Below, in pieces: positions 1,028 through 50,509 of a stretch of DNA of 64,000 nt. The stretch lies in contig CAZZNV010000001.1 in NCBI GenBank assembly GCA_964655915.1, forward strand, positions 10,012 to 74,011, given 5' to 3'. The DNA comes from an uncultured Azospirillaceae bacterium. GTDB lineage: Bacteria; Pseudomonadota; Alphaproteobacteria; RF32; CAG-239. The notes beneath the pieces are model-generated. The model ran no database searches and was not told the origin of the DNA. It worked only from the letters and a program-made list of their open reading frames with translations. Numbering within the stretch: the stretch's first letter is position 1; each line of letters starts with the position of its first letter. The translations under genes were made by a program, and so were the position numbers.

Positions 1028-1062
1028 AGACTGGCGAACAAGAAATATTAAGGATTATAAAG

Positions 1063-20843: not shown

Positions 20844-21578
20844 TCACGATTTGTTCAAAGTCAAAGAATATTTGTTTACCGTAAACCCGGTAGGATTTGT
20901 AAGCCTATCCCCATATTTTACGATTTTTTTACGAAAATTCACACCTAAAGAAGCTGTCCAATAATTAATAGACGGCTGATCAGATTCCGGATACATATCC
21001 GTCGTTTCATATTCCACCTGCCAAATACCATCAGCCAATTCATTTACCGAAAGTATCTTAACATTACGAACCAGACCTCTGTTCCGGATAATAGTAAGCG
21101 CTTTGTTAGCCGTGTTATCCAAGAAATCCTGATAAACATCTCCGGCAGACATCTCCTGAATCGGACCACCCGGCATCCACCTGGCTTCCATTTCAGGAAT
21201 ATCCGTGCTGAATGTACTCCGCAGCAACACATATTCCCTGACAAAGACCTCTATAACTGATTTTATATTCTGCAAACCGTCTTTAACCGGCTGAATATCA
21301 TAAACCTGCTCCGATCTGTTTTGAAAAGTCAGCAGATACGGCTCTACCCGATAGAGCGGCATCACTTGGTAAACCGCCAAAATCAAAACAATATTACAGC
21401 AAATACTCAAGGCGCTGATGATAGCAAAGGCACGCGCCGTCCACAGATAACGCTTTTCTCCGGCATTAGACACCATCATGCTATTTTTTTGCGAAACCGA
21501 GGAAGACGCCGGACGCTGTCCCATTCCTTCCCCCAACAAGCGTCGCCCGCCGGAATTTCCCTCTATTCTTTCAGCCAT
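20844..21578 (-). CDS. virB8: VirB8-family protein (copy 1)
   Basis: N-terminal cytoplasmic region, one TM (AFAIISALSICCNIVLILAVYQV), and periplasmic NTF2-like domain with VirB8 signatures (EVFVREYVLLRSTF; NPTGFTVNKYS). Confidence 0.8.
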   Translation of the reverse strand: MAERIEGNSGGRRLLGEGMGQRPASSSVSQKNSMMVSNAGEKRYLWTARAFAIISALSICCNIVLILAVYQVMPLYRVEPYLLTFQNRSEQVYDIQPVKDGLQNIKSVIEVFVREYVLLRSTFSTDIPEMEARWMPGGPIQEMSAGDVYQDFLDNTANKALTIIRNRGLVRNVKILSVNELADGIWQVEYETTDMYPESDQPSINYWTASLGVNFRKKIVKYGDRLTNPTGFTVNKYSLTLNKS

Positions 21579-21592: not shown

Positions 21593-21811
21593 CTAAATTG
21601 TCGCAACAAACCAATCCGGCAAATTCTTCGGAAGCTCTATTTCCATACATGCGCAGGGCGACAACTTCAGCTCATCGCTCCCTTTACCGATACCAACCGG
21701 CTCAGGCTCGTAATACGAACCAAAACAACCTGAAAGCAACAAAACACCCAAAACAGCTACGACTTTCAAACACTTATTCATCCACGAACCTTTCGTCAGA
21801 TTTAAATACAA
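21593..21811 (-). CDS. Small lipoprotein, VirB7-like
   Basis: 72 aa. Signal peptide plus lipobox (LLLSGCFGS). It is placed between two virB8 genes, and size and context fit VirB7, but there is no sequence-level proof. Confidence 0.45.
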   Translation of the reverse strand: MYLNLTKGSWMNKCLKVVAVLGVLLLSGCFGSYYEPEPVGIGKGSDELKLSPCACMEIELPKNLPDWFVATI

Positions 21812-21880: not shown

Positions 21881-22624
21881 TTAGAGAATATCAACCTCTG
21901 TTTGGGAATAGCGCGTTACGGTAAAGCCCAGAGGATTTAATAAACGGCGCCCAAAAAATTGACGCTCCTTGATAAAACGTGCGGAAAGCGAAGCCGTCCA
22001 ATAACGTGTCCTTAACACGGCTTGACCATTACTGTCGTTATACAGATCATATGTTTTAAAATCCACTTTCCAAATAGGGCTTTTTGCACCGCCTTGTCGA
22101 TTGACCGAAATAATCTCCACTTCTCGCACAAGAACCTGATTAATCATATCCACCCATCCTTTATGGACAGTTTCCTCAAAAGGTTCGTATACTTCTAACG
22201 AAGACATAAAGCTTACAATTCCACCGTACCACCAACGAGATTTCATCTCGCTTTGGTCATTTATAACCGTATTGCGATAAATAACATACTGCTTAATAAA
22301 GGTTTTCATCAGCTTTTCTTTAGAAGCCATAGTCTCGGTGATGGGTTCGTTACGCACGATACCCTCAGAACTGTCTTGTTTGATTATTAAAAACGGTTCG
22401 ACTCTAACCATTGGCGCCAAAGAAAACAGCGCTAAAGAAGAGCTAATCATCACCAATAAAGAAACGCACGCCACAAAAATGAAAAAACGAGACATCCAGA
22501 TATAGTAAAAATAACGCAGACCCTCTTTCTCATTTTCTACATGTTCTATAAACGCGTAGTTTTCCGCGCCGTCGGTTCCTATGGCTATTCGAGCGTTTTC
22601 ACTTCCTATTTGTCTGTTATCCAT
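21881..22624 (-). CDS. virB8: VirB8-family protein (copy 2)
   Basis: One TM (FFIFVACVSLLVMISSSLALFSLAP). VirB8 motifs (KQYVIYRNTV; NPLGFTVTRYS). Confidence 0.8.
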   Translation of the reverse strand: MDNRQIGSENARIAIGTDGAENYAFIEHVENEKEGLRYFYYIWMSRFFIFVACVSLLVMISSSLALFSLAPMVRVEPFLIIKQDSSEGIVRNEPITETMASKEKLMKTFIKQYVIYRNTVINDQSEMKSRWWYGGIVSFMSSLEVYEPFEETVHKGWVDMINQVLVREVEIISVNRQGGAKSPIWKVDFKTYDLYNDSNGQAVLRTRYWTASLSARFIKERQFFGRRLLNPLGFTVTRYSQTEVDIL

Positions 22625-22634: not shown

Positions 22635-25600
22635 CTAATACCTTACGTAATAGGGCATTGCTTTAAAGTTACTTTTAGCACCTAATTCTTCAAGATGCTT
22701 ACTATATTTATCAACAACTTCATCATTAACTTTTGCAGTTTTTATGTCTGCATCAAGGTTATTGTTATCCACAACGGCTGCGGTTACGGGGGTGAGCTCA
22801 TCTTTATCCTTTTGCAGCCCTCTGACGATGTTTTTGTAATAATCAACACGTTCGGCAGCAACCTCATTTTCCTTAATCTGAATATTATCCATTTTTTTCA
22901 ATGATTCCGCCACTTTGGTATTTTTCAATCGCTCTAGCTTGCCACGAACTTTTTCATAATCACTGTCTTTGGCCATATCCAAATTTCCAGATATTGCTAA
23001 GCCGTGCTTTGCCAAAACTTCTTTCAGTGTCTTCATTAACTCATCATACTCTTTTTGAACCTCTTCTTTGTGTCTGCGAGCATTTTGCTCATTTTCCACA
23101 AATTGCAGATATTCACCAATTTTATTTCGAGTCATAACCGCGTTATCATATGCTTTTTTCAACGGAGGCTGATCTTTGTTGCTGTCTCCTGAAACATCTT
23201 CCGCCTGCCTTGCGATAAGGTTTTGAAAAGCGTCATAAGTTTCTTGCCTGAAAAAGATTGTTCCGTTCGAATCGGCATCTAACAATGTGCCCAGCTCACT
23301 ATAAACGCAATTTTCCGACACAGGTTTTGCATCATCTTTATTCCACAAAGTTGGTTTTAAGAACGAAATCTCGGCAGAACGAAGGACATCATATACCTTG
23401 CCTTTTCTAATCTCCAAATACGGACATTCTCGCAAATCTTTTACCGTGGAATTTCCTTCAATGAAATCACCCTTGGCATTTACATCAACCACAACAGATG
23501 AATTTTTAACCTTACAAGGCATATACCCGCCTCGGAACAATGCCACCGTCGGACACTCCCCCTCTGATTTCAAAAGTTCTTTCAGATTAATATCCGTTTC
23601 GACAAAAGCTCTTTCTTTCAAAAGCATCTGCCATATAGCGGGAATCTCCTGACCATAATTCAAAAAGTCATTCCGTGTAATCGGTTCACTGTCTTTCCTG
23701 TCTTTATCATATGGTTTGATATTCTGAAAATCAACATCATCAAAACGTACAATTTCACGCAATGGAGGCAACTTCAAACCAGGAACAACCATCGGCGCCT
23801 TTAAATCTCTGGTTTTTGCGGGATTTCCCACAAAGTAATCCTCCCCCTCAGGAGAAACATCGGCAGAAAGCATTGTCTCATATAAAAGAATATCTAAAGC
23901 AACCTTCATGCCGCCATGCTTAACCACTAACGGCATCTTCTTTATGTCATCAATCATCTGCTGGTGAATCTGCACGACTTGTCCGTGATAATCGGGATCA
24001 TACAAATTATCTCCCATTCCTTTCAACTGGCTTTGAGCCATATCTATTCTGGCATCAACCAAAGTGTATAAATCAGATAAAGCTTTTTCAATAGCCGCGT
24101 TTAATCCACCCAGTAATGATGCCTTCAGCCCCACAGGATCTTCCACATCAACAAGCTTGGACACCATGTTGGAAGCTATAACACTAAGCCCCTGATTGAC
24201 ATCTTTAGAGAATTTCTCCTCATATTCCGACTTCGCCTTTTTTATTTGTTCTATGGCTGAAGCGCTCTTCTGAACCAACGAGGCATTAATGTTGGCACTG
24301 CCTTTTTGCGAATTTAACTTTTCTCTGGCAACCTGAGCATCTAAAGCTGACAGTTTTGCTTTCAGCTCTGATATTTTTTTATCCGCCTCAGAACTCTTTT
24401 GCTGAAGAACCTTGACATCTGATGTTCTTTTATCTCTTTTGATTGCTGAAGAAATATCCGCTTTTAACGCCTTCCCCCCGTCACTCTTCAAATATGCCAT
24501 TGCCAACGAGAATCCTGATTTGATTTTCATTGCATAATATGAACCTCCGGCGGCCGGAAGTACCGTGGCTCTAACCTCTTGAAAGACATCAGGAAACTCT
24601 TCTTTATATAACAAATTCTTTTCTATCTTCTTTATTGAATCTGTTCTGATTTCTTCTCTGGTGTCATATATTTCATCATTGAGATTCTTGAAGGTTTCAG
24701 AGGCTTTTTCAAGTTCTTCCGCCACTTGAGCGCGTTGCTTCTGCAAAGATGTTTCTGTCCTTTTTATCTCTTGTGCATGCTCTTTGTGCTTGGCATCGTA
24801 TTCTTCTTGGTATTTTATACGGCTTTTGTTAAGCTCTCCATCCAAACGAGAGAATTCTTGCTGTTTTAACGTGTCTGACGGAGAATTCTTCTTCCCCTGT
24901 AAATGAGCAACCACAACGGCCTTTACATCGTTTACGGAAAAGCCATGCAAAACAGTGCGAATATTTTTATATTTTCCATCCAGATATTGGTCATAAAACT
25001 TTTTAGTATCGTTCCATATTGGGAATTTTTGTTTAACAATTCCCCACTCTTGCGGTGCGGCCGCCATCATTTTTGATACTTCGGCACCGATTGTCCACGG
25101 TATCATGATTGTTGCCCGATTTTCCTCCGCAATTGCCTCTTCTTTTGACGGGCTCCCTATTGATGTTGAACGCTTAGAAATATTGTCCGCAATCTCGTTC
25201 TTTTCTATCTGCCCCGCATAATTATCGTTATTGCTGTCAAAATCCGTTTCCACATCGGCCATAACAATATCTCCGGTAACGTCTGTGGTCGCCTGCGCGG
25301 CTTTAGCGGCCTCAAACGCTGCCACAGCCCAACCACCGAGCCCTTTCATCTGATCATATGCCGTGATGTCTGTCGGCGGTGTCTGCCCTTGCATAACTTT
25401 TAACGGGTTATCGTAACGACGTCCTAAAAATTCTAAAACACTTTGTTGTTCCGATTTTAATTCTTCAATTGTTTTTTCATGCCTTTTTATGACTTCCTGA
25501 AGTCTTTGAGCGGCTTTTTTATATGACGGCAAACCATTTATTGTATTATGCGCTGATGATGCATCATCAACCTCAGCCGCTAAATCATCTACTTTGTTCA

Positions 25601-26786
25601 GCTCATTCATTTTTTCTTCGGCGGCAACATACGGATGCATTATTCCCGATGCCGGAGCCGTTGAATAGCTGACCCCTTTGGTTCTGAAAAATGCTTGAAC
25701 TTTAACTGCGGGAGATAAATCTTCAACATCTTTTTCGCTCAACTCTACTTTTGTTGATTTGTTTTGCAGCTCTTTAGCCTGAAACTCTAAGGTATCCTTT
25801 ATCCTGGCCGAGCGCTCCATCGTCTTTAAGACGGCATCTTTAGAGGCTCCGTCCGCCGTCATATTTATAAATTGCCCTGTGGCACTGTCTTTTATTTTGG
25901 CAACGGCTTTCTGAAGTTCTCGCTTTTCTTTCAGTTGTGCAAAAGCCAGAGGCGTTTTTCCTGAAATGCTATGCGTATTGGGAATTTCAAACAAAAAGGC
26001 CTCATCATGCGTTTCAGACTTATTCTCCTTACCGTCAAAGCGACTGTCAAATTTGAGAGGTTCTATTGTATTCATGGCTTTAACGGCGGCCAACTGTGCC
26101 CGCAAAGCTGTTGCGTTTTGAAGAACTTTCAACGCGTCATCCAAGGCGTCCAAAGCTTTTGTGCGGTCACAGATTGCTCCCTGAGTTCCATTACTCTCAA
26201 GAGAGCTCTTTGTTTTTTCTATGGCGGGTTTTATCTCACTTTCCATTTTACTTTGGAGCATATCAACTGCCGTATAAATTTCCGTAATGCTATCGGCTTG
26301 AAAACGATTGACATTGTTCTCAAAATCATATCGAAGATCAAATTCCGGTCTGGTCATAATTACGGCATATACGCCCTCTGCCACCGTTTCTTTTTGAGAG
26401 ACATCTACTTTTATCGTGTTGCCGTTTTTATCTTTAATTTGGCAAGTCTGAAATGCTGATGAAGCGAGCTTATTTACAAAAGCCAGAGGATTAGAAAGAT
26501 CATTTATGGCACCTTTTACGGTACCCACCGCTTTTTGAATACCGGAAAGACTGTCGTTTAATATATTTTGAGCTGTGCCGGCCGTTTCTGTTAAGCTATT
26601 AAAGGTTTCTTGCCCAACTCGAAAACCATTCATCGGAGCTTGTATCGGATCCATTTCAGGGAAAACTCCCGCAGGACTGGGAACTATCACCAATTCCACG
26701 GGGTCTATTGCATTTCCTTCAGGAGCGAATGAAACTGCCACACTCAAAAAAGCTATAAGACTGAATAAACTTTTACGCTTTTTCAT
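22635..26786 (-). CDS. Secreted giant coiled-coil protein (1383 aa), hypothetical
   Basis: Sec-type signal peptide (LFSLIAFLSVAVSFAPEGNA), then long K/E/A/Q-rich helical heptad-like sequence. Its start overlaps the stop of the upstream gene (shared coordinate 26786), implying translational coupling. Confidence 0.5.
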   Translation of the reverse strand: MKKRKSLFSLIAFLSVAVSFAPEGNAIDPVELVIVPSPAGVFPEMDPIQAPMNGFRVGQETFNSLTETAGTAQNILNDSLSGIQKAVGTVKGAINDLSNPLAFVNKLASSAFQTCQIKDKNGNTIKVDVSQKETVAEGVYAVIMTRPEFDLRYDFENNVNRFQADSITEIYTAVDMLQSKMESEIKPAIEKTKSSLESNGTQGAICDRTKALDALDDALKVLQNATALRAQLAAVKAMNTIEPLKFDSRFDGKENKSETHDEAFLFEIPNTHSISGKTPLAFAQLKEKRELQKAVAKIKDSATGQFINMTADGASKDAVLKTMERSARIKDTLEFQAKELQNKSTKVELSEKDVEDLSPAVKVQAFFRTKGVSYSTAPASGIMHPYVAAEEKMNELNKVDDLAAEVDDASSAHNTINGLPSYKKAAQRLQEVIKRHEKTIEELKSEQQSVLEFLGRRYDNPLKVMQGQTPPTDITAYDQMKGLGGWAVAAFEAAKAAQATTDVTGDIVMADVETDFDSNNDNYAGQIEKNEIADNISKRSTSIGSPSKEEAIAEENRATIMIPWTIGAEVSKMMAAAPQEWGIVKQKFPIWNDTKKFYDQYLDGKYKNIRTVLHGFSVNDVKAVVVAHLQGKKNSPSDTLKQQEFSRLDGELNKSRIKYQEEYDAKHKEHAQEIKRTETSLQKQRAQVAEELEKASETFKNLNDEIYDTREEIRTDSIKKIEKNLLYKEEFPDVFQEVRATVLPAAGGSYYAMKIKSGFSLAMAYLKSDGGKALKADISSAIKRDKRTSDVKVLQQKSSEADKKISELKAKLSALDAQVAREKLNSQKGSANINASLVQKSASAIEQIKKAKSEYEEKFSKDVNQGLSVIASNMVSKLVDVEDPVGLKASLLGGLNAAIEKALSDLYTLVDARIDMAQSQLKGMGDNLYDPDYHGQVVQIHQQMIDDIKKMPLVVKHGGMKVALDILLYETMLSADVSPEGEDYFVGNPAKTRDLKAPMVVPGLKLPPLREIVRFDDVDFQNIKPYDKDRKDSEPITRNDFLNYGQEIPAIWQMLLKERAFVETDINLKELLKSEGECPTVALFRGGYMPCKVKNSSVVVDVNAKGDFIEGNSTVKDLRECPYLEIRKGKVYDVLRSAEISFLKPTLWNKDDAKPVSENCVYSELGTLLDADSNGTIFFRQETYDAFQNLIARQAEDVSGDSNKDQPPLKKAYDNAVMTRNKIGEYLQFVENEQNARRHKEEVQKEYDELMKTLKEVLAKHGLAISGNLDMAKDSDYEKVRGKLERLKNTKVAESLKKMDNIQIKENEVAAERVDYYKNIVRGLQKDKDELTPVTAAVVDNNNLDADIKTAKVNDEVVDKYSKHLEELGAKSNFKAMPYYVRY

Positions 26787-28915
26787 TATCCCATTCCTCC
26801 TATTACGTCAACTTCAGGCTCCGGAACTTCTTCGGGAACACTCTCTTCTTCCGGTATCTCTGTTGAACTCGAATCATCCTCTGTTTCTTGCGCCGGTGTC
26901 GAATTACCTCCGGTTGCATTGGATAAGCCCGGAAGATTCTGAGCTGCACTGTTGACTTGGCCTATACCCTCTTGGACAGTAGACATACCCTCGCCGACTG
27001 CCGCAGCCATATCTCCTCCTAAATTCTGCAAATCACCCAAAATATCTTTTGGCTTCTGGGTTGCATAAGCACATAAATCAAAATTTGTTAAATCTACGGG
27101 AGTGTTTTTAATTGCTTTTAACTGAGAGGCCTCTACCGCTGCCGCCATTTTTAAATCAGCCAGCACTAAATCTATATAACGAACAAAAGCGTCTATTTCC
27201 TTGGTTGAGCCTTCTGTTTGGACAACCGTGGCATCGGACTCTCCCGAGGCGGTTCCCGCCAAATTGTTTGTCAAATCAATATCACTCCGAGGTTCTTTTA
27301 TATAGAATCTGCTGCTTACAGCTAATTTATACGCCTCATAAATAGCCTCTCGACGAACACCGTATCGGGACTGTTGTGTTGCCTCTACATTTGAAGATGT
27401 TTCTTCAGCATCCTGATCCAAGAAAAATGCGGCCTGCGTTTCTTCCACAGCCTCTTGAGGTTTTTCCTCCTTCTTTTTATCTTTTCCTAGAAGTTTTTTC
27501 GTTTTTTGGGTAATTTGAGTTATTTTTTTAACAAGATTTTTAATTGCTCCTTCTACCGCTTTTATGTTTTCTTCGTTTATCGTTTTTTCTATATCCTCTT
27601 CACTCATTCCCAAAAAGGCAAACATCAATTCTTCTTTCCCGCCAATACGAGAAGAACTTTTCAAACTGTTTTCTTTAATTTTTTTCGATAAATCTTTAAT
27701 TTTCAGGGATTCTACTTTACTTTTTTGCCCCCGGCGAACAGCTTGCACTTTATCCTTCGGGGTTATCGTTTCAACCTTGCTCACACTTTGCAGATTTGTC
27801 TTTAATTCTGAGCGATTAAGCTGTTTAGAATTATTTAAAATCCTGCTTGGATTATTTTCTTTTATATTTTTCAGCTTCTGAAGAGAAATTTTATCATCCG
27901 AAACCATGTCCTCTTCGCCAATCTTTAAAGCCTCTTCAACAGCCGGTTCCTCTTCCGCATTCGGCAAAGACAGCTTTTCAGAAACATCTAAAGACATTTT
28001 TGAGGCCAACTCACCTTTGGTCGCAACCAAATTTGTCTTAACATCAGCAATTGCCTGTTTTGCAGCCACCGCCTGCATCATATCCTCACTCAAGACAACA
28101 TCTTTTACGGCTATTCCTCTGGAAGCACCTAATTTCAAAGCTTTTGCTTTTTCTTCCCTTAGCGCTTTTGTGTTAGCCAGAGCCGTTTTGCGAATTTCCT
28201 CGCTCTCACGTTCTTTAAGAACCCACTCATCCAAAGACGTTCCTGTTTGAGCCAGTTGCGCTTCACTTTCCTCTAAAAATTCTTCATTTGCGGTTACATT
28301 CTCATTCATCTGAGCTTTATAGCTCTCAACAGTCCTTGCCAAATCTGCTTTAACCGCTTGGATTTGATTTTGGTATTGCGCTATTACTTTCTGTTGCGAG
28401 GCATCACTAACAGCTAAAAATTTGGCATTATTTATGTTGTTTTCCAAAGCTTTAACCTTGGAATCTGCCTCACTTTCCGCCAGCTCTATTTTTTCATTGT
28501 ATGAAGCTTTGAGATTTTCCTTAACCTCCTGCAAGCGGCTGACTTCGTCCTTCAGCGCGACAACTTCTTTACCTAATTTAGCCGCCTGAACAGCCGGACT
28601 GTTTAAAACATCATCTTTAATCTTCATCCCTTGGTTGTAGACGTTCATTATTCTCTCTTGAGCTTTTCCGGCATATTCCATACCCTTAGCCATGCCGTCT
28701 CGGGCATATCCTTGAGCTTTTTCCGCCATCACCTTCAGCTTTGTCAGTTTGCTGACCTGCTGTGCATCTTCTGATGCAGAAGTCGTAATATCAGACACAC
28801 CTCCGGCTGTTTGCGCCCCATCAAGTGTCACCGCCTTAACCTCAAAAGACAAGATAAAAGCGATCAAGCAACTTATTGTTACAAATGCTATGGAGAAAAG
28901 CTTCTTTTTCATCAA
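26786..28915 (-). CDS. Secreted coiled-coil protein (709 aa), hypothetical
   Basis: Signal peptide (LFSIAFVTISCLIAFILSFEVKA), coiled-coil-rich body, acidic C-terminal tail. Overlaps its neighbours by 1-4 nt. Confidence 0.5.
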   Translation of the reverse strand: MMKKKLFSIAFVTISCLIAFILSFEVKAVTLDGAQTAGGVSDITTSASEDAQQVSKLTKLKVMAEKAQGYARDGMAKGMEYAGKAQERIMNVYNQGMKIKDDVLNSPAVQAAKLGKEVVALKDEVSRLQEVKENLKASYNEKIELAESEADSKVKALENNINNAKFLAVSDASQQKVIAQYQNQIQAVKADLARTVESYKAQMNENVTANEEFLEESEAQLAQTGTSLDEWVLKERESEEIRKTALANTKALREEKAKALKLGASRGIAVKDVVLSEDMMQAVAAKQAIADVKTNLVATKGELASKMSLDVSEKLSLPNAEEEPAVEEALKIGEEDMVSDDKISLQKLKNIKENNPSRILNNSKQLNRSELKTNLQSVSKVETITPKDKVQAVRRGQKSKVESLKIKDLSKKIKENSLKSSSRIGGKEELMFAFLGMSEEDIEKTINEENIKAVEGAIKNLVKKITQITQKTKKLLGKDKKKEEKPQEAVEETQAAFFLDQDAEETSSNVEATQQSRYGVRREAIYEAYKLAVSSRFYIKEPRSDIDLTNNLAGTASGESDATVVQTEGSTKEIDAFVRYIDLVLADLKMAAAVEASQLKAIKNTPVDLTNFDLCAYATQKPKDILGDLQNLGGDMAAAVGEGMSTVQEGIGQVNSAAQNLPGLSNATGGNSTPAQETEDDSSSTEIPEEESVPEEVPEPEVDVIGGMG

Positions 28916-29436
28916 TTTTTCTCCTCTGAACTACAACGGTTTAAGACATCACTTTCCCCTTTAGGAATACTCTTAAACATTTGAGTTCCTTCCAGGGAGG
29001 CTATCCCCGCTTCTAATGCGGCAATTGACTGTAATCTGCGCGCTATACTTATCAATAAAGGTCTTGTGGCTTTAGTCATAATTTCCTTTTGTTCTTCAGC
29101 TTCTCCATTTCCTTTGTCCGCACACAAACTGTCCAAATCAAACTCTCTGTCTTTTTCATTCATCAGAACCACACGGGTACTTATCGCTTCTGCATATACT
29201 TTTGAGGCCAAATCACGAAGTAATTCATTTTCTTTTGAAGCTTCCGCTTCCGCCTCCGTTGAGTTAACAGCCTCAGAACTCAACGCTTTTATAATCGGAC
29301 ATATATTATCTGCAACATTAATCGGTTTACCATTCTTGCTGACGATGTAATCCGGAATTTCTAGTGCAAGCGTTGATGTCGGAGTACAACAAACAGCCGC
29401 TAAAAACAAAATAGAAAAATGTTTGAGCTTATTCAT
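28912..29436 (-). CDS. Small secreted helical protein (174 aa), hypothetical
   Basis: Signal peptide (FSILFLAAVCCTPTSTLALE). Size and helical character are compatible with a VirB5-like minor pilus protein, but there is no motif-level support. Confidence 0.4.
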   Translation of the reverse strand: MNKLKHFSILFLAAVCCTPTSTLALEIPDYIVSKNGKPINVADNICPIIKALSSEAVNSTEAEAEASKENELLRDLASKVYAEAISTRVVLMNEKDREFDLDSLCADKGNGEAEEQKEIMTKATRPLLISIARRLQSIAALEAGIASLEGTQMFKSIPKGESDVLNRCSSEEKN

Positions 29437-30778
29437 TGTTATCTCCCTTTGCCCTTATTTGGCGTTTAGCCTGCGCAATATTTTTCTTAAAACTTTGGCG
29501 TTCAGTTTTTACTTGGTTTATTTTAGCCTTTTTATCTGCTTTGACAGGAAGTTTCGCAAATTTCTCCTTATTTGCGCCTGTTTTTTCAGTAATTTGCCTA
29601 ATCTTTGCCGATACGGCATCCATTTTCTCCGGTAACGCGGCTTTGGCCTCAACATCTTGAAAAACAGCCTTTTCACCTTGATATGGCAAAACAGCATTTG
29701 AGGCATCCATTTTCGCTTTGACCTCTGCAACATCTTTCGTAAAAGACCTTTTTGCTTTGAGTATCGGTCGGGCATCTTGAGTTTCATCTAACACTGCCGG
29801 ATTTTCAACCGTAGTATCCGAAATATCATCAGAAGAAATCAACTGCTCCTCAACCGGCACCAAACTTCGCTGAACTTGTTCTTGAGAGGCGACAGCCTGA
29901 ACCGTCATCGGCGATGTTAATCCCTGTTTAAACTCTTCTGCTGAAAGCTGTGGCAGCTGTTTTAGCACTGTAACTTCCGGCATTTGAGGTAAAGCGGTAT
30001 TTAAGTTGGTAATACCTGTTGTCAACTGTCCCAAACGATCAAACGCGACAGCTTCTTCGCTCGCTTTGGGCAGCATTGTCATTTGTGGTTGAGCTGTGGC
30101 TGAAGAGATTAGTGCTCCATCTTGCGCCATAGCAGGTAATTCGTATTTTATAAACTGATTCTGCACAACCGCCGGACGAACAATAACGGTTTCTTCTTGC
30201 AATATTTCCATTTGCATGTCCCCTTCGGCAAGGGATAAGTCAGCATCTCCGACAATCAATTCCAAGTCTTCAGAAGCCGTGTCCGTGTTTTGATTTGCTT
30301 CCTTATTTATGAACATGCCTTTGGCTTCTTCCAATTGTTGCTTTTTATCTTTCACTTGTTCACTGATTTTATTAATTTTTTCTCTTTCTTTATTTATTCG
30401 TTCTCGGAGCCCCGAAACTTGTTCAGAATACTCTTTTAATTTTCCTAAGTTGTTATCTTTAAACTCCTGAACTTTAGCAACTTTTTTTTCTAACGATTCT
30501 TTTTCCTTTTGTAAGCGCTCCATCGCTTTTTGGGCTTGTTCAATTTTTTTGGTTGCTTTTTCTATCATAGACACATCGCCCAAAGAACCAATTTTTCCTG
30601 AACGGAGCTGGGTATATTGGTTTACATAATCTTCTTGAAAAGTTCCTATTTTTTTCTCTTGTACCTGAATATTTTTCAAAACATTATTAACAGGGTCGGT
30701 AATAAGCGCCCACGAAAGAACCGGCCGGAAAACAATCCCCGCCAAAACAAGAAAATATGTCATTACCCGTTTTGTCAT
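29429..30778 (-). CDS. Secreted coiled-coil protein (about 449 aa), hypothetical
   Basis: Start taken at ATG (MTKRVMTYFLVLAGIVFRPVLSWA), 1 nt after the upstream stop; the ORF track begins 11 codons earlier. Signal peptide then K/E-rich coiled coil and a Q/P-rich tail. Confidence 0.45.
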   Translation of the reverse strand: MTKRVMTYFLVLAGIVFRPVLSWALITDPVNNVLKNIQVQEKKIGTFQEDYVNQYTQLRSGKIGSLGDVSMIEKATKKIEQAQKAMERLQKEKESLEKKVAKVQEFKDNNLGKLKEYSEQVSGLRERINKEREKINKISEQVKDKKQQLEEAKGMFINKEANQNTDTASEDLELIVGDADLSLAEGDMQMEILQEETVIVRPAVVQNQFIKYELPAMAQDGALISSATAQPQMTMLPKASEEAVAFDRLGQLTTGITNLNTALPQMPEVTVLKQLPQLSAEEFKQGLTSPMTVQAVASQEQVQRSLVPVEEQLISSDDISDTTVENPAVLDETQDARPILKAKRSFTKDVAEVKAKMDASNAVLPYQGEKAVFQDVEAKAALPEKMDAVSAKIRQITEKTGANKEKFAKLPVKADKKAKINQVKTERQSFKKNIAQAKRQIRAKGDNNE

Positions 30779-30779
30779 A

Positions 30780-31364
30780 TTACTCAACGTCCTCCACCGG
30801 AGCAGAATCATTGGAAAATTCGTATAAATTCATATTTTCCATTGCATTTAACGACATTTGTACCGATAAAATCTCAATCACATTTAACATATCTTCTGCG
30901 GCTTTTTTGGTAAGACTTGAGCTTTGTTCCTGTTTTTTATGAATATTATCATCCGCACTAAAGCTCGCTCCCAAGAGAGAACTTTCCCCTACCGCGTCGT
31001 CTATTTCATTTTCTGCATCTCCGGCCAATGATTTTTTTTGCGCAGACACATCCAGCGCATCAGCACTTAATTGCCATAAAACTTTGTGCATATGCTCCTG
31101 ATAAGGAACTTTATCCCTTTGTGAACCTGTTTTTAATGCTAATGTCTTATTCAAGCAATCCTCAATTTTCTGTCCTTCATTCGCATCATGAGAGCTGATT
31201 TCACAAAACATTGCCATTTGTTTTGGAAATATCAAAGAACCATCTGTTGCCGTTCCACTATCCAACGAAAGAGCTTTGCTTTCCACAGGAGCAAGCAGAA
31301 TCAAACCGGTTATCATTAAGACTGTAATATATTTTTCCGCGCAACAAATCATTCTCAACCTCAC
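30780..31364 (-). CDS. Small secreted helical protein (194 aa), hypothetical; C-terminal motif shared with upstream 627-aa protein
   Basis: Signal peptide (VLMITGLILLAPVESKA). C-terminus (IEILSVQMSLNAMENMNLYEF) resembles the C-terminus of the 31361..33244 product (NNLAMLQSSRLALNAYNNYGVYKF). Confidence 0.45.
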   Translation of the reverse strand: MRLRMICCAEKYITVLMITGLILLAPVESKALSLDSGTATDGSLIFPKQMAMFCEISSHDANEGQKIEDCLNKTLALKTGSQRDKVPYQEHMHKVLWQLSADALDVSAQKKSLAGDAENEIDDAVGESSLLGASFSADDNIHKKQEQSSSLTKKAAEDMLNVIEILSVQMSLNAMENMNLYEFSNDSAPVEDVE

Positions 31365-33244
31365 TCATCTTCTTCCGGCGTTGAGAATTTATACACACCG
31401 TAATTGTTGTAGGCATTGAGCGCCAGACGAGAACTTTGCAACATCGCCAAATTATTTATAACCTTAGCAATGGCCTTGTCGGTCTCAACAATATTCCCGT
31501 AAAGGCTCTGGACATCAACATCGGCGGCTGTTTCCAAAGGGTCAATTTCTTTCTCAATAAAATCTTCCATCTCTTTTTGGTTCTTATATCCGGTGGCTAT
31601 GTAAGCGGCAATTAGCTCCTTTTTCCCCTGATGATAGACCGCAGCCGCCTCCACCACCTCCGTGGCTTGAGCCCTTTTTGCTGAAGCATTTAAATCCGAA
31701 AGGCATTTATTTAAAGCGTCTTGCTTCAATGCCTTGGAGGAGCTTAATTCACAAATCAACCCTATGGTCGGAGGAACAATAACCGTGCCGTTTTCATTTG
31801 TTCCGTTATCCCCAAGCCCCAGCAACGATGCAAACATTAACGGCTCATTCCCGCTCATTTTAGCTGAACTTTTAAAGGCGGCATCTTGTAGCTTTTGGGG
31901 CTGAACCTCAATGCTTGGCGCATTTACTTTGCCTCGATTAAAACTCTTACGAAGAGGGGAAATCGAGCGTTGCCTATCCTGCGGAAGTTGTTTCTTTACC
32001 ACCGTGTTAAGCTTGTCTTGCACAGACAATACCTTGCTCTTAACGGCGTTATCAGAGACAATATTTCTTTGAATTTCATCCTTATCACCGACCTTTTGAG
32101 CAGATACCGCCTCAGAAGCCACCGCTCTCTTGAGTTTAGCCCCTTCCAATTTTACGGCTGAAATATCTTTAGCGAGCGAAACTTTTTCAACCGCATCAGA
32201 GGCTTGCAAGATTTCTTTTCTTTGGGCATCAACAACGGCATTTTTAGCCTCTTTTGCCAAAGCAACCGTTGAGGGGTTCATTGTTGATACTTTCTCAACA
32301 CTACCGACACTTGTCGCTACTGCCGCTTTATTATATTGGTTTTCTATTTTTGCAGCAGATACTTTTTCTTGTACAGCTTTCGTTGCTTGCGCCGCTTGCT
32401 CTATTCTCGCTCTCTCGACTTGTTCTAATTGAGCTTTCTCTAACTCCATTGCTCTTGTGTTGAGTTTAGCCTTTTCCAATCGAACTTGTGTTGCGGCTGT
32501 TGCCATATTCGCATTCGCCCCGAGAGCAGCATTTTGCATCTGCATTTGCGTATCCGCCCTTAGAGCGGCTTTATTCTGGCCGATGTCTCTGATTTTTGCC
32601 GCTGTGGCCAAATTTTCACTTCGAAAAGCTCGTCTGCTTGAACTTATTAATTCCTCCCGAGAATACTCATCATCATTTTCTTCAGCTAAAGACATCTCTT
32701 CGTCGTACAAAGCCGCTCCATCATCTGTTAACAAGGCGTCAGAACTTCCCTCTGAATTTCCGACCAATCCTCTCACATTTACTCCGGAAACTGAGGATAT
32801 TTTATCTTGCACGGCGCCCTTTAATCCGGCTCCGGCATCTTTCACGCCGGAGGCTATACCTTTAGCATCTCCATATGCATCCGTTATGGCCTTCTTCTTT
32901 TGTTCAACAAACTCTTTATATTCTTTGAGGTCTTTCTGATATTTTTCAACGTCGCTCTTATATTTATTTACCTTTTCCATGCCTTCAGCCACTTTTTCTT
33001 TAGCATTGGCCGCAAACTCCGTAACGGTCTTGGTATATGTTCCAACCGTTGACATCGTTTTATTAAGAAATGTTGTAGAATCTGTAATGAACTTAGACTG
33101 CTTTACGGTATCCGTAACTTTCTGAACCGTACTGGAAACAGAACCCGGGTCTATGGAGGGAATTTGTGCCCAAGCAGAACCGGAGGCAAAACCGAATGCG
33201 ACAACTCCGGCCGCAATCCACTTGCAATAATTTGCTTTTTCCAT
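31361..33244 (-). CDS. Secreted A/K/E-rich coiled-coil protein (about 627 aa), hypothetical
   Basis: GGGAGG RBS 5 nt before ATG (MEKANYCKWIAAGVVAFGFASGSAWAQ signal peptide); the ORF track begins 11 codons earlier. First gene after virB4. Confidence 0.5.
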   Translation of the reverse strand: MEKANYCKWIAAGVVAFGFASGSAWAQIPSIDPGSVSSTVQKVTDTVKQSKFITDSTTFLNKTMSTVGTYTKTVTEFAANAKEKVAEGMEKVNKYKSDVEKYQKDLKEYKEFVEQKKKAITDAYGDAKGIASGVKDAGAGLKGAVQDKISSVSGVNVRGLVGNSEGSSDALLTDDGAALYDEEMSLAEENDDEYSREELISSSRRAFRSENLATAAKIRDIGQNKAALRADTQMQMQNAALGANANMATAATQVRLEKAKLNTRAMELEKAQLEQVERARIEQAAQATKAVQEKVSAAKIENQYNKAAVATSVGSVEKVSTMNPSTVALAKEAKNAVVDAQRKEILQASDAVEKVSLAKDISAVKLEGAKLKRAVASEAVSAQKVGDKDEIQRNIVSDNAVKSKVLSVQDKLNTVVKKQLPQDRQRSISPLRKSFNRGKVNAPSIEVQPQKLQDAAFKSSAKMSGNEPLMFASLLGLGDNGTNENGTVIVPPTIGLICELSSSKALKQDALNKCLSDLNASAKRAQATEVVEAAAVYHQGKKELIAAYIATGYKNQKEMEDFIEKEIDPLETAADVDVQSLYGNIVETDKAIAKVINNLAMLQSSRLALNAYNNYGVYKFSTPEEDE

Positions 33245-33323: not shown

Positions 33324-35756
33324 CTACTTAAGATTTAAATATTTTGTAACAAAGTTTTCTTCGCCGTATTCCTTGATTAATTGCTCAACTAAAAGCACAT
33401 TCTTACGACTTGAATTGTACAGCCGCAAATAAGGCCCTAATCCGCCTAAATTAACATCCATAATTACAGATTCACCCGTTGCCGGACGAGATAATAAAAT
33501 TGCATACGGAAAATCACGATATGTTTTACCGGCAATAAAATCCAACTCTGCGTTTGTAAGATTCCAGTTTGCATAGTCTTCCGGAGTTGATTGAGGGTTT
33601 CTGAAAAACAGAACTGTTTGACATTGACCGCGAATAGTTTCACCCACGCCCAATTTATCAACAATATCCGGCTGTTGGAACGCACACAAAAACGCTTGAC
33701 GTTTTTTACGTCCTTCACGCAAACCTATTTCAAAGAACTTTCGGAACATCGGGTGTTTCAACATTGGCGCCGTTTCATCAATCATAATCAGTGACGGAGC
33801 GCCCGTTTCATCCGTTTCGGCTTCAATACGGTGCATGATGTAGCTGATTACGGCCGGAGCTAAAACTTCGTCATCAAAAATATGTGTAAAGTCAAAAGCC
33901 ATGAAACGTTTGGATTTTAAATCCAAGTCATCATTTGTTGCGTTAAAAATATTACCGTATTGATCCGGTGAAACCCAACGAGTGAGCTCACTGCGAACTT
34001 TTCCTGTCGGAGAAAAGCAACTGGTGTGCAAATTACGCAGAATACGCTCGTCCGGACGCAAATACTCAAACGCCGTGGTGATGGCTCGTGAAATTTCAGT
34101 TCCGGAGGCTTCGTCCGTTGCCATGGTAATAGCGCGTAACCACGTTTGCAAAAATGTTCTGTTAAACTTAGTATCGCTGCAGTCAAACGGATTTAACGAC
34201 ACATTTTTTTCATCACCATCAAACCCGACATACGCACCGCCGATGGCACGCGTAAAAATCTCGGCACCGCGGAAACGGTCGAAGAAAAACACTTTCAAAT
34301 CTCTGTGCCGCATAGCTTGTCCGGCCAAAAAAGTAAATAAAGTTGTTTTTCCTTGTCCGGTCGGACCGATAATACAACAGTGTGCCACCGCGGCATCTTC
34401 TGCCGAAACGTGAAACTGGAAACGATAGGCCGAACCCGAAGTCGTTTTGAATATACTTATGGCTCCCTGCCCCCAGTCACTCTTTGAAAAGCCGTCGGAG
34501 GGCCTGTCAAACGAAATCGCCGTAGCCACCACCCTTGACAAATAACGATAGGTTCTGGGTAAAGATTCGTAGCCGGGAAACTGATTGAAGAACGTTGCCT
34601 GAGTCACCCATCCTTCACGCACAGGAGTGACGCCAAATGTACGGCAAACACGTTGAACTTCACTTTCTCCGAACTCTATTTCTTCTTTTGTCGCTCCCTG
34701 CAAAATAATGGCCATGGCATATTCTGTCAAAGACTGGTGATTTACGTCACTATCTTCAATAGAGGACAACGCTTCACTATATTGTTCTACAATATCCGGA
34801 GAAAAGCTGGTTACACCGGCCATTCTCCTTTGTTGCATTAATACCGTTCTCGCCTCAGCCCTATAAATAGGACGAATGTTGTGCAACAAAATCAGTTCAC
34901 AATCTATCGTCAGCAAAGAAGCCACCATAGCCTCGTCCATATAATCACCGGACGAACGAATCCCCATACAAATTTCATACATTTCTTTTTCACCGGAGAA
35001 GAAACGAATCAGCCCGTCTTCTCCCGTAAAATGTATATGATCAGCGGTTAAAAGTTCATTGAGATGAGCACCTTCTGCACCATTAATCTTAGGCATCGGC
35101 TTAGAAACAGGGCTGCATATTTTCGAATATACAGACAAGGGGCTGTCTTCCGCAGGGCTTTTTTCGGTCTCATACAAGACTGTTACCCCATATTCACTCA
35201 ATGTTGCAACCAGCGACTGCGAAGCATAGTTTAAATCTTTAAGAGCGTCTGAGCGGTCGACAACCGTCAAAACTATGTAGTGCGCGTTACTATACACCCG
35301 ATCCAACGTATCATGCCAAATATGAGATACCGTTTCCAAAATGGGAACACCAAAATCACCGACATCGGCTTCCAAGGCCATCCGCTCACGCAAAGTAATG
35401 ACGCGACAGATAACCTGCAAATCCGACATATCGTCTATCCACTTTTTCCGCGCTTCCAGCATAGAAGCCACTTTTTCATCCGTTACAAAAGCCAAATCGA
35501 CGCCGGTTACTCTGAACACCCGAACCAAAGACCCGTTTGTACAACGAATCGTCATTCCGTCTGAGAGAAGTTTATTAAAAGGCAAAAAGTCAGACACCCG
35601 AGACTCTCTCGGCTGCGGCAAAACATAGTGTCCAAATTTAGTTACCCAGAATCCGGCAAAGGCTGCGGCCGATATAAAGCCAATGACCGCAACAGCGACT
35701 TCCATTGAGGAAAGCCCCTGCACGAATATACTGTAAAAGTCAAAATCAGGGCGCAA
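33324..35756 (-). CDS. virB4: VirB4/TrbE/CagE-family T4SS ATPase
   Basis: 810 aa. Walker A (CIIGPTGQGKTTLF), conserved VirB4 C-terminal ATPase region, and overlaps virB3 by 11 nt. Confidence 0.9.
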   Translation of the reverse strand: MRPDFDFYSIFVQGLSSMEVAVAVIGFISAAAFAGFWVTKFGHYVLPQPRESRVSDFLPFNKLLSDGMTIRCTNGSLVRVFRVTGVDLAFVTDEKVASMLEARKKWIDDMSDLQVICRVITLRERMALEADVGDFGVPILETVSHIWHDTLDRVYSNAHYIVLTVVDRSDALKDLNYASQSLVATLSEYGVTVLYETEKSPAEDSPLSVYSKICSPVSKPMPKINGAEGAHLNELLTADHIHFTGEDGLIRFFSGEKEMYEICMGIRSSGDYMDEAMVASLLTIDCELILLHNIRPIYRAEARTVLMQQRRMAGVTSFSPDIVEQYSEALSSIEDSDVNHQSLTEYAMAIILQGATKEEIEFGESEVQRVCRTFGVTPVREGWVTQATFFNQFPGYESLPRTYRYLSRVVATAISFDRPSDGFSKSDWGQGAISIFKTTSGSAYRFQFHVSAEDAAVAHCCIIGPTGQGKTTLFTFLAGQAMRHRDLKVFFFDRFRGAEIFTRAIGGAYVGFDGDEKNVSLNPFDCSDTKFNRTFLQTWLRAITMATDEASGTEISRAITTAFEYLRPDERILRNLHTSCFSPTGKVRSELTRWVSPDQYGNIFNATNDDLDLKSKRFMAFDFTHIFDDEVLAPAVISYIMHRIEAETDETGAPSLIMIDETAPMLKHPMFRKFFEIGLREGRKKRQAFLCAFQQPDIVDKLGVGETIRGQCQTVLFFRNPQSTPEDYANWNLTNAELDFIAGKTYRDFPYAILLSRPATGESVIMDVNLGGLGPYLRLYNSSRKNVLLVEQLIKEYGEENFVTKYLNLK

Positions 35757-36223: not shown

Positions 36224-39200
36224 TTAGAGTTCGTCAACACCGCTGAGAACTTCTCCATTTTCATCCAAGATCAGCTCAATTTCATCACCAGCCGTGGCGA
36301 CAATCTCACCGTCTTTGTTGATAACAGTTCCGTCTTCCATCAAATCACCTAAGAATCTTCCTTTAAGGTCTTTGACTTTGCTGTCTTCATCAACATAACC
36401 CACGATTTTACCGTCTGCATTTACACAGCTGATTGTCTTGATGCTGATGCCTTGGACAACATCACCTTCATTAGCCTGAACCGCAGGCTCGTCAGCCGTC
36501 ATGCTGTTAACCGCCTCTTGTTGCTGGAGCAAAGCTTCTTGTCTGGCGCGGAACGCCGCAGCTCTACCCTCTGATGACGGTCTGGCTCCGCCTGTACTTA
36601 CAGCACCGTTATTACCCTTAGCCGCATAAGACGAGCTGCCGCGATATCCAAATCCACCTGTCGTTCCTCTGTATGAATGAACTGCTCTGGAAGCGGATCT
36701 TGTGCCACTGCTTCTATGGCCGGATGAACCGGATACGCTAGGCAACCTCCAACCACTGTCAGAGTTATTGCCTGAAGCTGTTACACCAGTCTCTTCGACA
36801 TTATCAGATGTCTCCGTAGTAGTGGCAGTATCAGCACTGGCAATCCACGAACTTTTATCTATTGACGACGTTGTCGTTTTTTTATTTGAATCTGATGTTG
36901 CACCACCGTTATTATTCGTTGTATTGCTTCCTGTCTTCGTTTCATTGCCACCGGTAGATGACCCTGAATATACTGAAGAGCGAGAAGAACCTGTCTGTGG
37001 GGCATTTCCAGCCACCGGAGGTGTTACGCTTCCACCGTTTGTATTGTTTCCGGTATTTGCATTATTGCCACCGCTTCTGGTATTTGAATTACCGCTTCCC
37101 GAATTACCGGAACCATTGCCGTTTCCTGAACTACTGGAACCATCGTTTTTGCCTGTGTTATCATTATTATTGCTTCCAGAATTCGTATTGTCGTCACCGC
37201 CGCCTCTGGTGTCAGAACCACTGTTCTTATTCCCATTATCGTCGGATCCGTTGTTTTTTCCGGAGTCATTGTCGTTTCCGCCTTGATTATTGTCACCGGA
37301 ACCTTTTCCGTCTCCGGATTTATTCCCGTTTCCACCTTGGTTGTTACCTCCGGAACCTTTTCCGTCTCCGGATTTATCATCTTTATTACCGGTTCCACCT
37401 TTTGAAGCACTATCATCTGTCAGACCGGCTTTTTCATTTTGCTTTTCTATCATATAGATATAGGCATTGTCTCTTCTGTTTTCTGATTCTGTTTTATGTT
37501 TTTTCTCGTCTTCAAGCTTCCTTTGCTGTTGTTTATACTCATCTTCCGCATCTTTCAGAGCCTTTTCCGCGGCTTGAGCAGCAAGAATATCTTTCTTATT
37601 ACCACTTTCTTTAGCCTTCTTAACAGCTTCGTCATAAGCCTTCTGAGCCTCATCTCTGGCTGACTCTTTTTGGTTCAGCTCTGTGGTATAAGCTTCAATA
37701 TTTTTATCAGCCTCATCAACAGCCTCTTGTGCTTTTTTCCGAGCCTCATCAGCGGCTTCAATAGAAGCATCCAAAGCTTTCGACTTCGCCTCCTTAACTC
37801 GCTCATCGTAATTATTACTGTCATAGTTACTTTTGGCCTCGTTATAAGCTTTATCTGCCTGATTTTTCTTCGTTTCTGCCTGATTGGCTTCTGCTCTGGC
37901 TTTTTTAGCTTGAGCTTCAGCAAGATCTGCTTTGCGCTTATCCTCCTCAGACCCTGTACGATTTGCTTCATCTCGCGCTTTTCTGGCTTCATCTTCCAGA
38001 TTACTCGCTTTTTGATTTTTTGCGTCGTAGTCTTTTTCAGCAGCATCTTTAGCTTTTTCTTTATTGTCCATATCTGATTTTGCATTTCTAGCCTCATTCT
38101 CCAAAGCATTGGCATCGCTGACCAGCTGTCTGGCCTCATCTTGTTTCGGAGTGTTTCTGGCTGCCGCTTCATCAGCCGCTTTCCGCTCTTTTTCCTGTTG
38201 TTTTTCCCAGTCGTCAAGCTGCTTTTGCTCTTCACGTTCTTTCTTGCGCTTTTCTTGCTGTTTCTGCTGGATATTACCATTTATGGTTTCGTTATTCTTA
38301 CCCAGCCCCAGACTTGCCAGCGAAGTGTTACCAATCGTTCCCGCAATATCGGCACCTGTATTCATTCCATCCTGAAGCATGCCGTTAACCGTACTGACTT
38401 CCTTTTTAATATTTTTAGTTTCATTAACAACATCACCAACTACTCCTTTAGTCATAAAGTCTACCACTTTATTTCCTGAGCTTGCTTTATCAGCTTCTTC
38501 TTTAGCCTTTGTACAAGCATCAGATTTAGGATCTGCATTGCAGATACGTCTAGCTCTATCTTGAGCCGCTTTAGCTTCCTCTCGCTGTTTATTCATTTCT
38601 TTGATTTGCTCCTCAGTTTTACCCATATTTTGGATATTCTGAGCCGCATCTATGATATTATTTTGCGTGGTGGTAATAATGTTGCCCGTAGTGCCCACGA
38701 TATTATTAAGGTTGCTACCAATACTACCCACGGCATTAAATACACTCTCCAAGCTGTTAATATTCTTAAATGCGTTACCTATATTTTGTGCCGAATTCTT
38801 AATAGTTTCCACACCATTTTTAATTGTTTGAGCGGTGTTTTTAACATCTCTTAGTGTCTTGGCTGCCGATTTACCTGTCTTTATGATATCTTTAACGCAA
38901 CTGGCAAAACCGCTACCAGCAATCCCTTTTTCTTTGGTCTTTGCATCTTTTTTGCAAAAGCCTCTTGTGTCATTTCCACCTCCACTTCCATTTCCATTTC
39001 CATTTCCACTTCCATTTCCACTTCCTTCTTTATTTTTACCACCTGGATTTATATTGCTCAGACACTTGTTTCGCTCCGACTCTTCCAACTTTTGACATTC
39101 TGCTTTTTGTATTTCTCTTATTTTGTCATCGATCCTCTCTTCTATATCTTTAGGTAATTGAGTGCACTCCTTTGTAGGTTTTCCATCCTTATCTGTTTTT

Positions 39201-49364: not shown

Positions 49365-49383
49365 AACCGAAGGATAGAAAGAA

Positions 49384-50508: not shown

Positions 50509-50509
50509 G

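Follow-up and report, generated by a model that had tools for sequence, protein, structure and literature searches.

In canonical type IV secretion systems (T4SSs), VirB5 sits in the stalk and at the tip of the pilus. The rvh systems of the Rickettsiales carry duplicated virB8, virB9 and virB4 genes, have several large virB6 genes after virB4, and have no virB5. In the Trw system of Bartonella, which is without a coupling protein, amplified variants of the pilus components TrwJ and TrwL mediate host-specific adhesion (PMC2610397, PMC3406051), and individual Trw proteins are up to 80% identical to R388 components (PMC2610397). In Helicobacter, CagL, CagI and CagH are adjacent secreted helical proteins with a common C-terminal motif and are required for pilus formation; CagL is viewed as the VirB5 counterpart, and the Cag T4SS is oversized, with a giant VirB10 (PMC3164655, PMC10194873). 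We analysed a T4SS operon carried on 64,000 nucleotides of DNA from an uncultured bacterium placed in the Azospirillaceae (contig CAZZNV010000001.1, positions 10,012 to 74,011; this whole stretch is called the window, and positions below are those of the window). The gap between virB4 and the first virB8 of this operon is filled by a 10.6-kb block of six genes, D to I, which the first-pass annotation of the window had read as standing in place of virB5. Our comparison indicates a different history, in which virB5 appears to have been multiplied, split or fused, and lengthened, and not replaced, because the products of D, H, G and E align to VirB5 when profile is compared with profile. The block and its two boundaries are as follows.

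VirB4 ATPase, 33324-35756, minus strand, 810 aa; matches Pfam CagE_TrbE_VirB and TIGR00929 (E-value 2e-112); upstream boundary of the block
D, 31361-33244, minus strand, 627 aa; first gene past virB4
E, 30780-31364, minus strand, 194 aa, or 190 aa with the next ATG as start
F, 29429-30778, minus strand, 449 aa; only in lineages with five to seven block genes
G, 28912-29436, minus strand, 174 aa; small secreted helical protein
H, 26786-28912, minus strand, 708 aa; secreted protein extended by coiled coil
I, 22635-26786, minus strand, 1383 aa; last gene in the block
First VirB8, 21881-22624, minus strand, 247 aa; matches Pfam VirB8 (E-value 1.2e-17); downstream boundary of the block

The nearest plasmid-borne VirB4 proteins are 34-37% identical to that of the window (maximum 37.5%) and are found on megaplasmids of Microvirga, Sphingosinicella and Erythrobacter; the next nearest, that of Paracaedimonas, is 30% identical. 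In this plasmid clade the gene right after virB4 is a member of PF07996, the VirB5 family, and the 251-aa Erythrobacter protein matched the PF07996 model with 30.3 bits (gathering score 24.7). A VirB5 profile was made from 35 homologues of the Erythrobacter protein, several of them flagged by PF07996 and one named VirB5, and the block proteins were compared with it by hhalign with signal peptides removed. The following regions aligned.

D mature N-terminus 1-45, with VirB5 1-45: probability 94.5%, E-value 8e-8
H region ~492-596, with VirB5 109-214: probability 89%, E-value 2.4e-6
G 22-156, with VirB5 84-215: probability 76%, E-value 2.2e-5
E domain 43-151, with VirB5 109-213: probability 59%, E-value 9e-5

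When the N- and C-terminal parts of the D-family profile were spliced without the insert that lies between them, the profile aligned colinearly with VirB5 from one end to the other, covering 181 of 222 positions (85%, E-value 5.9e-6). One reversed and ten column-shuffled VirB5 profiles (five shuffled profiles in the spliced-D comparison) gave scores of 6-16, compared to 33-49 with the real profile, and probabilities of at most 0.6%. F, which served as a negative control from within the operon, reached 0.2-0.8%. The D family is marked by the mature N-terminus [IVW]-P-[VT]-x-D (57 members have it), and the same mature start is found in R388 TrwJ (QGIPVFDG) and in VirB5 of Erythrobacter, Sphingosinicella and Microvirga. 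D also has the other traits of a VirB5, being encoded directly after virB4 and having a signal-peptide-like N-terminus in front of the I-P-V-x-D-type mature start. From these alignments we judge homology to VirB5 to be probable for D and H and plausible for G and E. The alignments strongly indicate that D is a VirB5 in which the N-terminal helix and the C-terminal body are parted by a coiled-coil insert of ~400 aa.

The block proteins are also tied to one another. D consists of a signal peptide, the VirB5-type mature N-terminus (QIPSIDP...), the K/E-rich coiled-coil or low-complexity insert, and a C-terminal domain of ~150 aa (residues 478-624) with two conserved Cys. D 479-626 and E 35-192 are 29% identical (BLASTP E-value 1e-6), and the C-terminal motif that the first-pass annotation had seen in both proteins (...L-N-A-x-x-N-x-x-x-Y-x-F) proved to be the tail of this whole-domain match. 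G37, C54 and C70 are invariant in the E-family alignment. The E domain aligned with the G family, for which jackhmmer collected 57 members, at an hhalign probability of 96.7% (E-value 3e-10), and the mature N-termini of H and D aligned at 75% (E-value 2.5e-5). Together these comparisons strongly indicate that D, E and G, and H via the VirB5 profile, share one VirB5-related domain family.

Domain mapping with jackhmmer found one or two copies of the E-like domain in the block's first gene. In lineages with four or five block genes (L081 12715-14241, L076, L071 and L030), the first gene after virB4 carries two tandem E-like domains, for example at residues 183-343 and 354-501. These tandem domains document a fusion or fission of the D and E genes, and protein E is a free-standing, split-off copy of the D C-terminal domain that is fused into the first gene elsewhere. 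The window copy of H is ~250 aa longer than most orthologues (708 aa compared to ~450 aa); the extra segment, within residues ~96-397, is a K/E/A-rich coiled coil, with ~190-225 additional coiled-coil residues by family mapping. Insert length, as H shows, varies freely between lineages. In F, a conserved N-terminal motif (TDP...KIGxxGD) is followed by a K/E coiled coil at ~70-160, then by a Q/P/A-rich middle that is poorly conserved and finally by a K-rich tail. F is a coiled-coil protein for which no relatives were detected, and its score against the VirB5 profile (0.2-0.8%) led us to reject it as a VirB5 relative.

I is the best-conserved gene of the block. An exhaustive HMMER search with residues 381-1383 of its product against 1.84 billion representatives returned 214 matches at an E-value of ≤1e-3, with 171 at ≤1e-10; among the 150 listed, nearly all non-partial entries are 1050-1850 aa long and cover the length of the query. 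Because the matches are full-length at 1050-1850 aa, I is, on this search, a closed family with the same architecture throughout. In a word-indexed large protein database, which held three to four homologues each for I and E, three homologues of I were found at 33-41% identity, all in the same gene order on metagenomic contigs. AlphaFold 2 (AF2) modelled residues 381-1383 from a 56-sequence alignment with a predicted local distance difference test score (pLDDT) of 86.2 and a predicted template-modelling score (pTM) of 0.80. In the model, helices of 87 and 91 residues form an antiparallel hairpin ~130 Å long, whose distal loop is poorly predicted; the remainder consists of more helical bundles, an alpha/beta head at ~950-1180 and a C-terminal helical bundle. 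C1091 is invariant and C1121 nearly so in the alpha/beta head, which also has the motifs LPPLRE and SELGTLL. No significant structural match of the model was found in the PDB or among viral structures beyond coiled coils. The model strongly indicates that I is a large protein of a new kind, which combines a coiled-coil stalk ~130 Å long with a globular head, and the head as predicted is without a solved structural counterpart. The N-terminal 130-240 residues of I align in register with the VirB5-like domain, though the signal is too weak for a claim of kinship.

Some of the block products, chiefly I and F, might be Sec-dependent substrates or effectors released by the T4SS and not parts of the machine. 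Pertussis toxin, released by Ptl, is a precedent for a Sec-dependent substrate. We consider this role for I and F improbable.

All six open reading frames (ORFs) of the block lie on the minus strand between virB4 and virB8, as the first-pass annotation had placed them, and Pfam matches bore out its naming of the flanking genes, VirB4 on one side and two VirB8 on the other. NCBI's public gene calls for the same contig have products of 627, 190, 449, 174, 708 and 1383 aa here; those of D, F, G, H and I are exactly ours, and E is called four codons further in. The starts at 33244 and 30778 match the public calls, and Shine-Dalgarno-like sequences lie upstream of them. The spacing of 1-4 nt first reported for adjacent genes held for all junctions but F/G, which overlaps by 8 nt; D and E overlap by 4 nt (or are separated by 8 nt with the 190-aa start), E and F are 1 nt apart, and G/H and H/I each overlap by 1 nt. 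From virB3 to virB11 the packing is equally tight, with gaps of at most 11 nt except for 79 nt before D and the 302-nt interval that contains a lipoprotein gene. Tight packing is a trait of the whole operon and is not peculiar to the six genes. The six may be translationally coupled, and their products may act as fibrils or effectors, as was first proposed.

On inspection, each of D to I begins with a basic n-region and continues through a hydrophobic stretch to an AxA-like site, with putative cleavage, in gene order, at SAWA|QIP, SKA|LS, SWA|LIT, TLA|LEIP, VKA|VTL and GNA|IDP. A Kyte-Doolittle scan found no hydrophobic segment past the signal-peptide-like N-terminus in any of the six, so that none is polytopic; the Sec-type signals and the lack of polytopic products were as first described. 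The same is true of the K/E/A-rich coiled-coil composition: K, E, A and Q make up 30-39% of residues in D to I compared to 17-21% in VirB4, VirB8, VirB9 and VirB10, and the only family matches were to coiled coils. Searches of Pfam, NCBIfam and PHROGs with all six proteins returned nothing but coiled-coil noise. PDB sequences, searched by phmmer with D and I and by hmmsearch with profiles of the E, G and I families, yielded only coiled coils of the SMC, Rad50, EnvC and ApoA-I type, and no Cag match, where the PDB should include Cag entries. Literature searches found no paper describing this T4SS.

We sought relatives of the locus with VirB4 in one genome per GTDB species, with confirmation by tblastn. 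VirB4 relatives were present in 257 species-level genomes. The best 80 of these are 74-81% identical and are almost all from uncultured Alphaproteobacteria of human (including Hadza), primate, ruminant (roe-deer), rodent (mouse) and bird (chicken) guts, with 'Proteobacteria bacterium CAG:495' and Candidatus Scatocola as named examples. Both VirB4 and the first VirB8 were held by 73 of the 86 loci fetched, and the interval between the two genes measured 7.4-10.1 kb with 3-7 ORFs. These 73 loci share the layout VirB2-like/VirB3/VirB4/[3-7 ORFs]/VirB8/lipoprotein/VirB8/VirB9/VirB10, and at every one of them a gene of 1200-1650 aa (I) is the last in the block; the synteny also holds in four deep lineages. 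Iterative searches within the loci found the families of D, G, H and I everywhere, and the extra genes E and F only in lineages with five to seven block genes. D is always first, G is second of four or fourth of six, H is third of four or fifth of six, and I is always last. The block is an ancestral, lineage-wide trait of the T4SS in these gut Alphaproteobacteria, with 3-7 genes by lineage. It is not a genome-specific insertion, because it occupies the same position in 73 related loci, and its description as 'inserted' was not upheld.

The constancy of position bears also on a prophage or mobile-element fragment, unrelated to the T4SS and carrying, for example, tape-measure-like genes, which the first-pass annotation had itself raised. 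F 68-170 weakly matches two tape-measure PHROGs (E-values 8.5e-6 and 4e-5), and a single faint match of I was to a terminase small subunit (E-value 0.06). The tape-measure matches, however, are confined to the K/E coiled coil of F, the other five proteins are without a PHROG match, and the model of I has no viral structural match. GC content and skew run smoothly through the operon, and no phage genes surround the block at the 73 loci where it is in place. The conserved position and the restriction of phage matches to coiled coil effectively refute this origin, to which we give hardly any credence.

The block genes evolve at a rate unlike that of the core. Median identity to the window proteins is 76% for VirB4, 68% for VirB3, 55-58% for VirB8 and 70% for VirB9, compared to 28-31% for the six block proteins. 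Across eight close pairs of genomes, the ratio of non-synonymous to synonymous divergence (dN/dS) was 0.003-0.02 for VirB4 and 0.04-0.23 for the block genes, and non-synonymous divergence of the block genes was 5-40 times that of VirB4. Because dN/dS is well below 1, the block genes are under purifying selection; they are real coding genes, far less constrained than the core. With the 73 loci, the dN/dS values and the literature searches, the view that the genes are genuine, uncharacterised and embedded in a T4SS operon stands.

The six products could also be extra subunits of an enlarged periplasmic or outer-membrane core complex rather than exposed parts of a tip or pilus, with the coiled coils as internal struts or spacers. 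Core-complex proteins for comparison are Cag3, CagM and CagT in Helicobacter and the DotF/DotH-associated proteins in Legionella. The machine is indeed oversized (VirB9 559 aa, VirB10 1511 aa, a 1137-aa beta-flower protein and a 1128-aa VirB2-like fusion), all six products have Sec-type signals and are encoded inside the core operon, and I, the most conserved of the six, is always present. Core subunits normally evolve slowly, however, and the 5-40-fold excess of non-synonymous divergence over VirB4 does not fit this; the number of genes varies from 3 to 7 between lineages, and kinship to VirB5 favours a stalk or tip over a ring. We therefore hold a place in the core complex to be unlikely.

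Our preferred reading, to which we assign a probability of roughly 0.6, is that the block encodes a Sec-exported periplasmic or extracellular stalk, tip or surface module of an enlarged, chromosomally fixed, lineage-specific T4SS. By analogy with VirB5 in other systems, the VirB5-like paralogues would be exported by Sec and then assemble on a VirB6/VirB2 base. The coiled-coil inserts and I would extend the VirB5-like assembly into a longer or thicker surface structure, and its exposed, rapidly diverging surfaces would contact a target, which may be host epithelium, mucus or another microbe. Bartonella, with its amplified TrwJ, or Helicobacter, with CagL/CagI/CagH, would offer a parallel to such a contact module. 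The VirB5-like or pilus-associated role proposed in the first-pass annotation is thus still the best reading, given the profile links of D, H, G and E to VirB5. Neither a VirD4/TrwB coupling protein nor a MobA/MobF relaxase was found by Pfam and tblastn in the 64-kb window or in 10-kb flanks (loci L002-L086). Their absence there is in keeping with a surface structure like that of Bartonella Trw (PMC2610397).

Several points weigh against this reading. Surface exposure, assembly on VirB6 and adhesion are argued from analogy and evolutionary rate, and coiled coils under relaxed constraint could account for the fast evolution equally well. A pilus built by this T4SS would be conjectural. The search for a coupling protein was confined to the window and the 10-kb flanks. 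The VirB5 profile was drawn from a single alphaproteobacterial subfamily, and the spliced D is an artificial construct. The mature N-terminus of H is tied to VirB5 indirectly, through D, and the C-terminal region of H reached just 5.7-8.5% when compared directly with the E domain and the G family, to which it is tied via the VirB5 profile only. Links of E and G to VirB5 are moderate (59-76%), the VirB5 N-terminus was not detectable in either protein, and the AF2 model of E (6-sequence alignment) is helical with low confidence (pLDDT 50), which leaves unconfirmed a fold like that of TraC and CagL, a three-helix bundle that carries a globular appendage. Single proteins of the nearest plasmids, compared by hhalign with the E, G, H and I families, gave nothing significant, and the link arose only with the VirB5 profile. 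PF07996 was unmatched by all six proteins (E-value ≤0.1) and 24 E-family members, and by 40 D-family N-termini (E-value ≤1) and nine insert-deleted D constructs; Pfam scans of individual E- and D-family members likewise had no recurrent VirB5 match. The VirB5 comparison that the first-pass annotation had called for gave, by profile-profile alignment, a link that is strong for D and H and moderate for G and E, and none for F; with PF07996 it was negative for all six.

The silence of PF07996 at any threshold, the 59-76% reached by E and G and the lack of a confident structure for the VirB5-like candidates can all be cited for a resemblance that arose by convergence, or as an artefact, among secreted helical proteins, in which case the six would be new families that functionally replace VirB5. 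Yet four independent profiles fall colinearly on the correct halves of VirB5 and keep register with them, while the reversed, shuffled and in-operon (F) controls fail, and the motif, its place after the signal peptide and the place of the gene after virB4 all agree. Convergence appears to us doubtful on this balance, about as doubtful as a place of the six products in the core complex.

The remaining genes of the operon and its surroundings include the following features.

Second VirB8, 20844-21578, minus strand, 244 aa; matches Pfam VirB8 (E-value 7e-23)
Lipoprotein, VirB7-like in size and position, 21593-21781, minus strand, 62 aa; lipobox LLSGC; between both virB8 genes
Two tandem TrbL/VirB6-like ORFs, 2-3723, plus strand, 341 aa and 886 aa; outside the operon

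The operon runs in the order VirB2-like fusion (1128 aa), a VirB3-sized ORF, VirB4, D to I, VirB8, the lipoprotein, VirB8, VirB9 (559 aa), a 1137-aa beta-flower/RHS-repeat protein, VirB10 (1511 aa, with beta-flower repeats) and VirB11. The two TrbL/VirB6-like ORFs matched Pfam TrbL with E-values of 2.5e-4 (under the gathering score) and 7.5e-8 (over it), in agreement with the first report that virB6-like genes lie elsewhere. All related contigs keep the lipoprotein gene, at ~62 aa (one call gives 52 aa), and its product is likely the VirB7 equivalent.

The first gene of the operon (36224-39610, minus strand) encodes a 1128-aa protein whose first 96 residues show a weak match to the TrbC/VirB2 pilin family (E-value 0.002, under the gathering score). 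Two hydrophobic segments lie within these 96 residues, which are followed by ~1000 more residues with a faint C-terminal beta-flower match, and orthologues in related contigs are 1404-1771 aa long. A pilin fused to so giant an extension would be unusual, if true. Between virB9 and virB10, 15741-19154 (minus strand) encodes the 1137-aa protein, which is membrane-anchored and has Bflower_2 repeats (E-value 1e-71), DUF3659 and RHS repeats. VirB10 (11203-15738, minus strand) has similar beta-flower/DUF3659 repeats before its TrbI domain, without an RHS match. The beta-flower fold was first described from mining of the AlphaFold database (PMC10584680). Its occurrence in T4SS core components appears undescribed.

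GC skew is strongly negative (-0.16 to -0.32) over the minus-strand T4SS operon (12001-40000), and its sign flips near 41-42 kb, at the start of a plus-strand pilus operon. This looks like a strand effect tied to transcription or the coding strand, rather than a replication landmark. A scan for promoters and terminators was uninformative, as terminator-like sites occurred at chance level. The pilus operon is of type IVb (42701-52069, plus strand), adjoins the T4SS operon, is divergently transcribed from it, and encodes a TcpQ-like protein, a secretin, a T2SSE ATPase, a T2SSF platform protein and two PilS/bundlin-type pilins. Side by side, a T4SS and a type IVb pilus are reminiscent of the IncI plasmid R64.

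A bolder reading, which we offer tentatively, makes the block the defining part of an undescribed class of enlarged, non-conjugative T4SS that is chromosomally fixed in a whole order-level lineage of Alphaproteobacteria from human and animal guts, with I and the VirB5 descendants building a long surface fibre or needle for contact. Other parts of such a machine may be the VirB2 fusion of 1128 aa, VirB10 with its beta-flower decoration and the additional beta-flower protein of 1137 aa; the fibre or needle may mediate contact with host cells or microbes, and I may be a new tip adhesin or translocator. Multi-copy VirB5 and system-specific pilus proteins are already known in principle. What is unusual here is that the VirB5 descendants are hidden from family models by coiled-coil inserts, and that no relative of the I family can be recognised.

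Should the block be a VirB5-derived surface module, common but unstudied commensals would carry a dedicated contact apparatus with quickly evolving exposed parts, and these parts would offer a handle on host or niche specificity. It would also follow that multiplication, splitting, fusion and lengthening by coiled coil can carry VirB5 beyond the reach of standard family models, and T4SSs annotated without VirB5 may merit a second look. With its confident model, the I family offers structural and functional studies a new and well-defined target.

Among known systems, rvh of the Rickettsiales resembles the window in that two virB8 and two virB6-like genes are present here. However, the virB6-like genes do not follow virB4, VirB5-like genes are present, and the nearest VirB4 proteins are those of plasmid systems of free-living Alphaproteobacteria and of Paracaedimonas, so that the synteny comparison with rvh suggested in the first-pass annotation gave a negative answer. 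The megaplasmid T4SSs of Microvirga, Erythrobacter and Sphingosinicella have the same order VirB2-VirB3-VirB4-VirB5-...-small lipoprotein-VirB8-VirB9-VirB10-VirB11, with the small lipoprotein annotated in Microvirga and Erythrobacter. On these plasmids a ~250-270-aa secreted protein follows VirB4 and is itself followed by a ~430-aa secreted protein; Microvirga only has an extra 228-aa gene between the two. They differ in having one VirB5, VirB9 and VirB10 of normal size and a MobA/MobL relaxase, and VirD4 was seen in the Microvirga and Erythrobacter stretches, whereas no VirD4 or relaxase was found in the window, where six genes extend over 10.6 kb.

Compared to the VirB5/TraC/TrwJ/TrbJ family (PF07996), the minor pilins or stalk-tip proteins of P-type T4SSs, D is alike in its place directly after virB4, its Sec-type signal, its I-P-V-x-D start, the long helix after it and an all-helical make-up, and profile similarity extends over the whole length of spliced D and over the C-terminal half in H, G and E. 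The differences are four (possibly five) paralogues instead of one, three times the usual size of D and H through coiled-coil inserts, a conserved Cys pair in the E/D domain, and a Pfam model blind to all six.

Bartonella Trw, with its tandem trwJ (virB5), trwI, trwH and trwL, is likewise alphaproteobacterial, has several variant VirB5 in the operon and diverges fast, and no coupling protein was found in our window and flanks. The Trw copies, however, are recent and similar and include virB6, virB7 and virB2, whereas the paralogues here are ancient, barely recognisable and of differing architecture; virB6 lies elsewhere, there is a single VirB7-like and a single VirB2-like gene, and VirB4 is at most 37.5% identical to plasmid VirB4. 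Helicobacter Cag, as described, is alike in its side-by-side secreted helical T4SS-specific genes with a common C-terminus and in its oversized machine. It differs in that its C-terminal motif is a hexapeptide rather than the D/E motif found here, in its host lineage, and in CagA, for which no similar effector is in view in the window. Trw and Cag are functional analogies for this locus rather than families to which it belongs.

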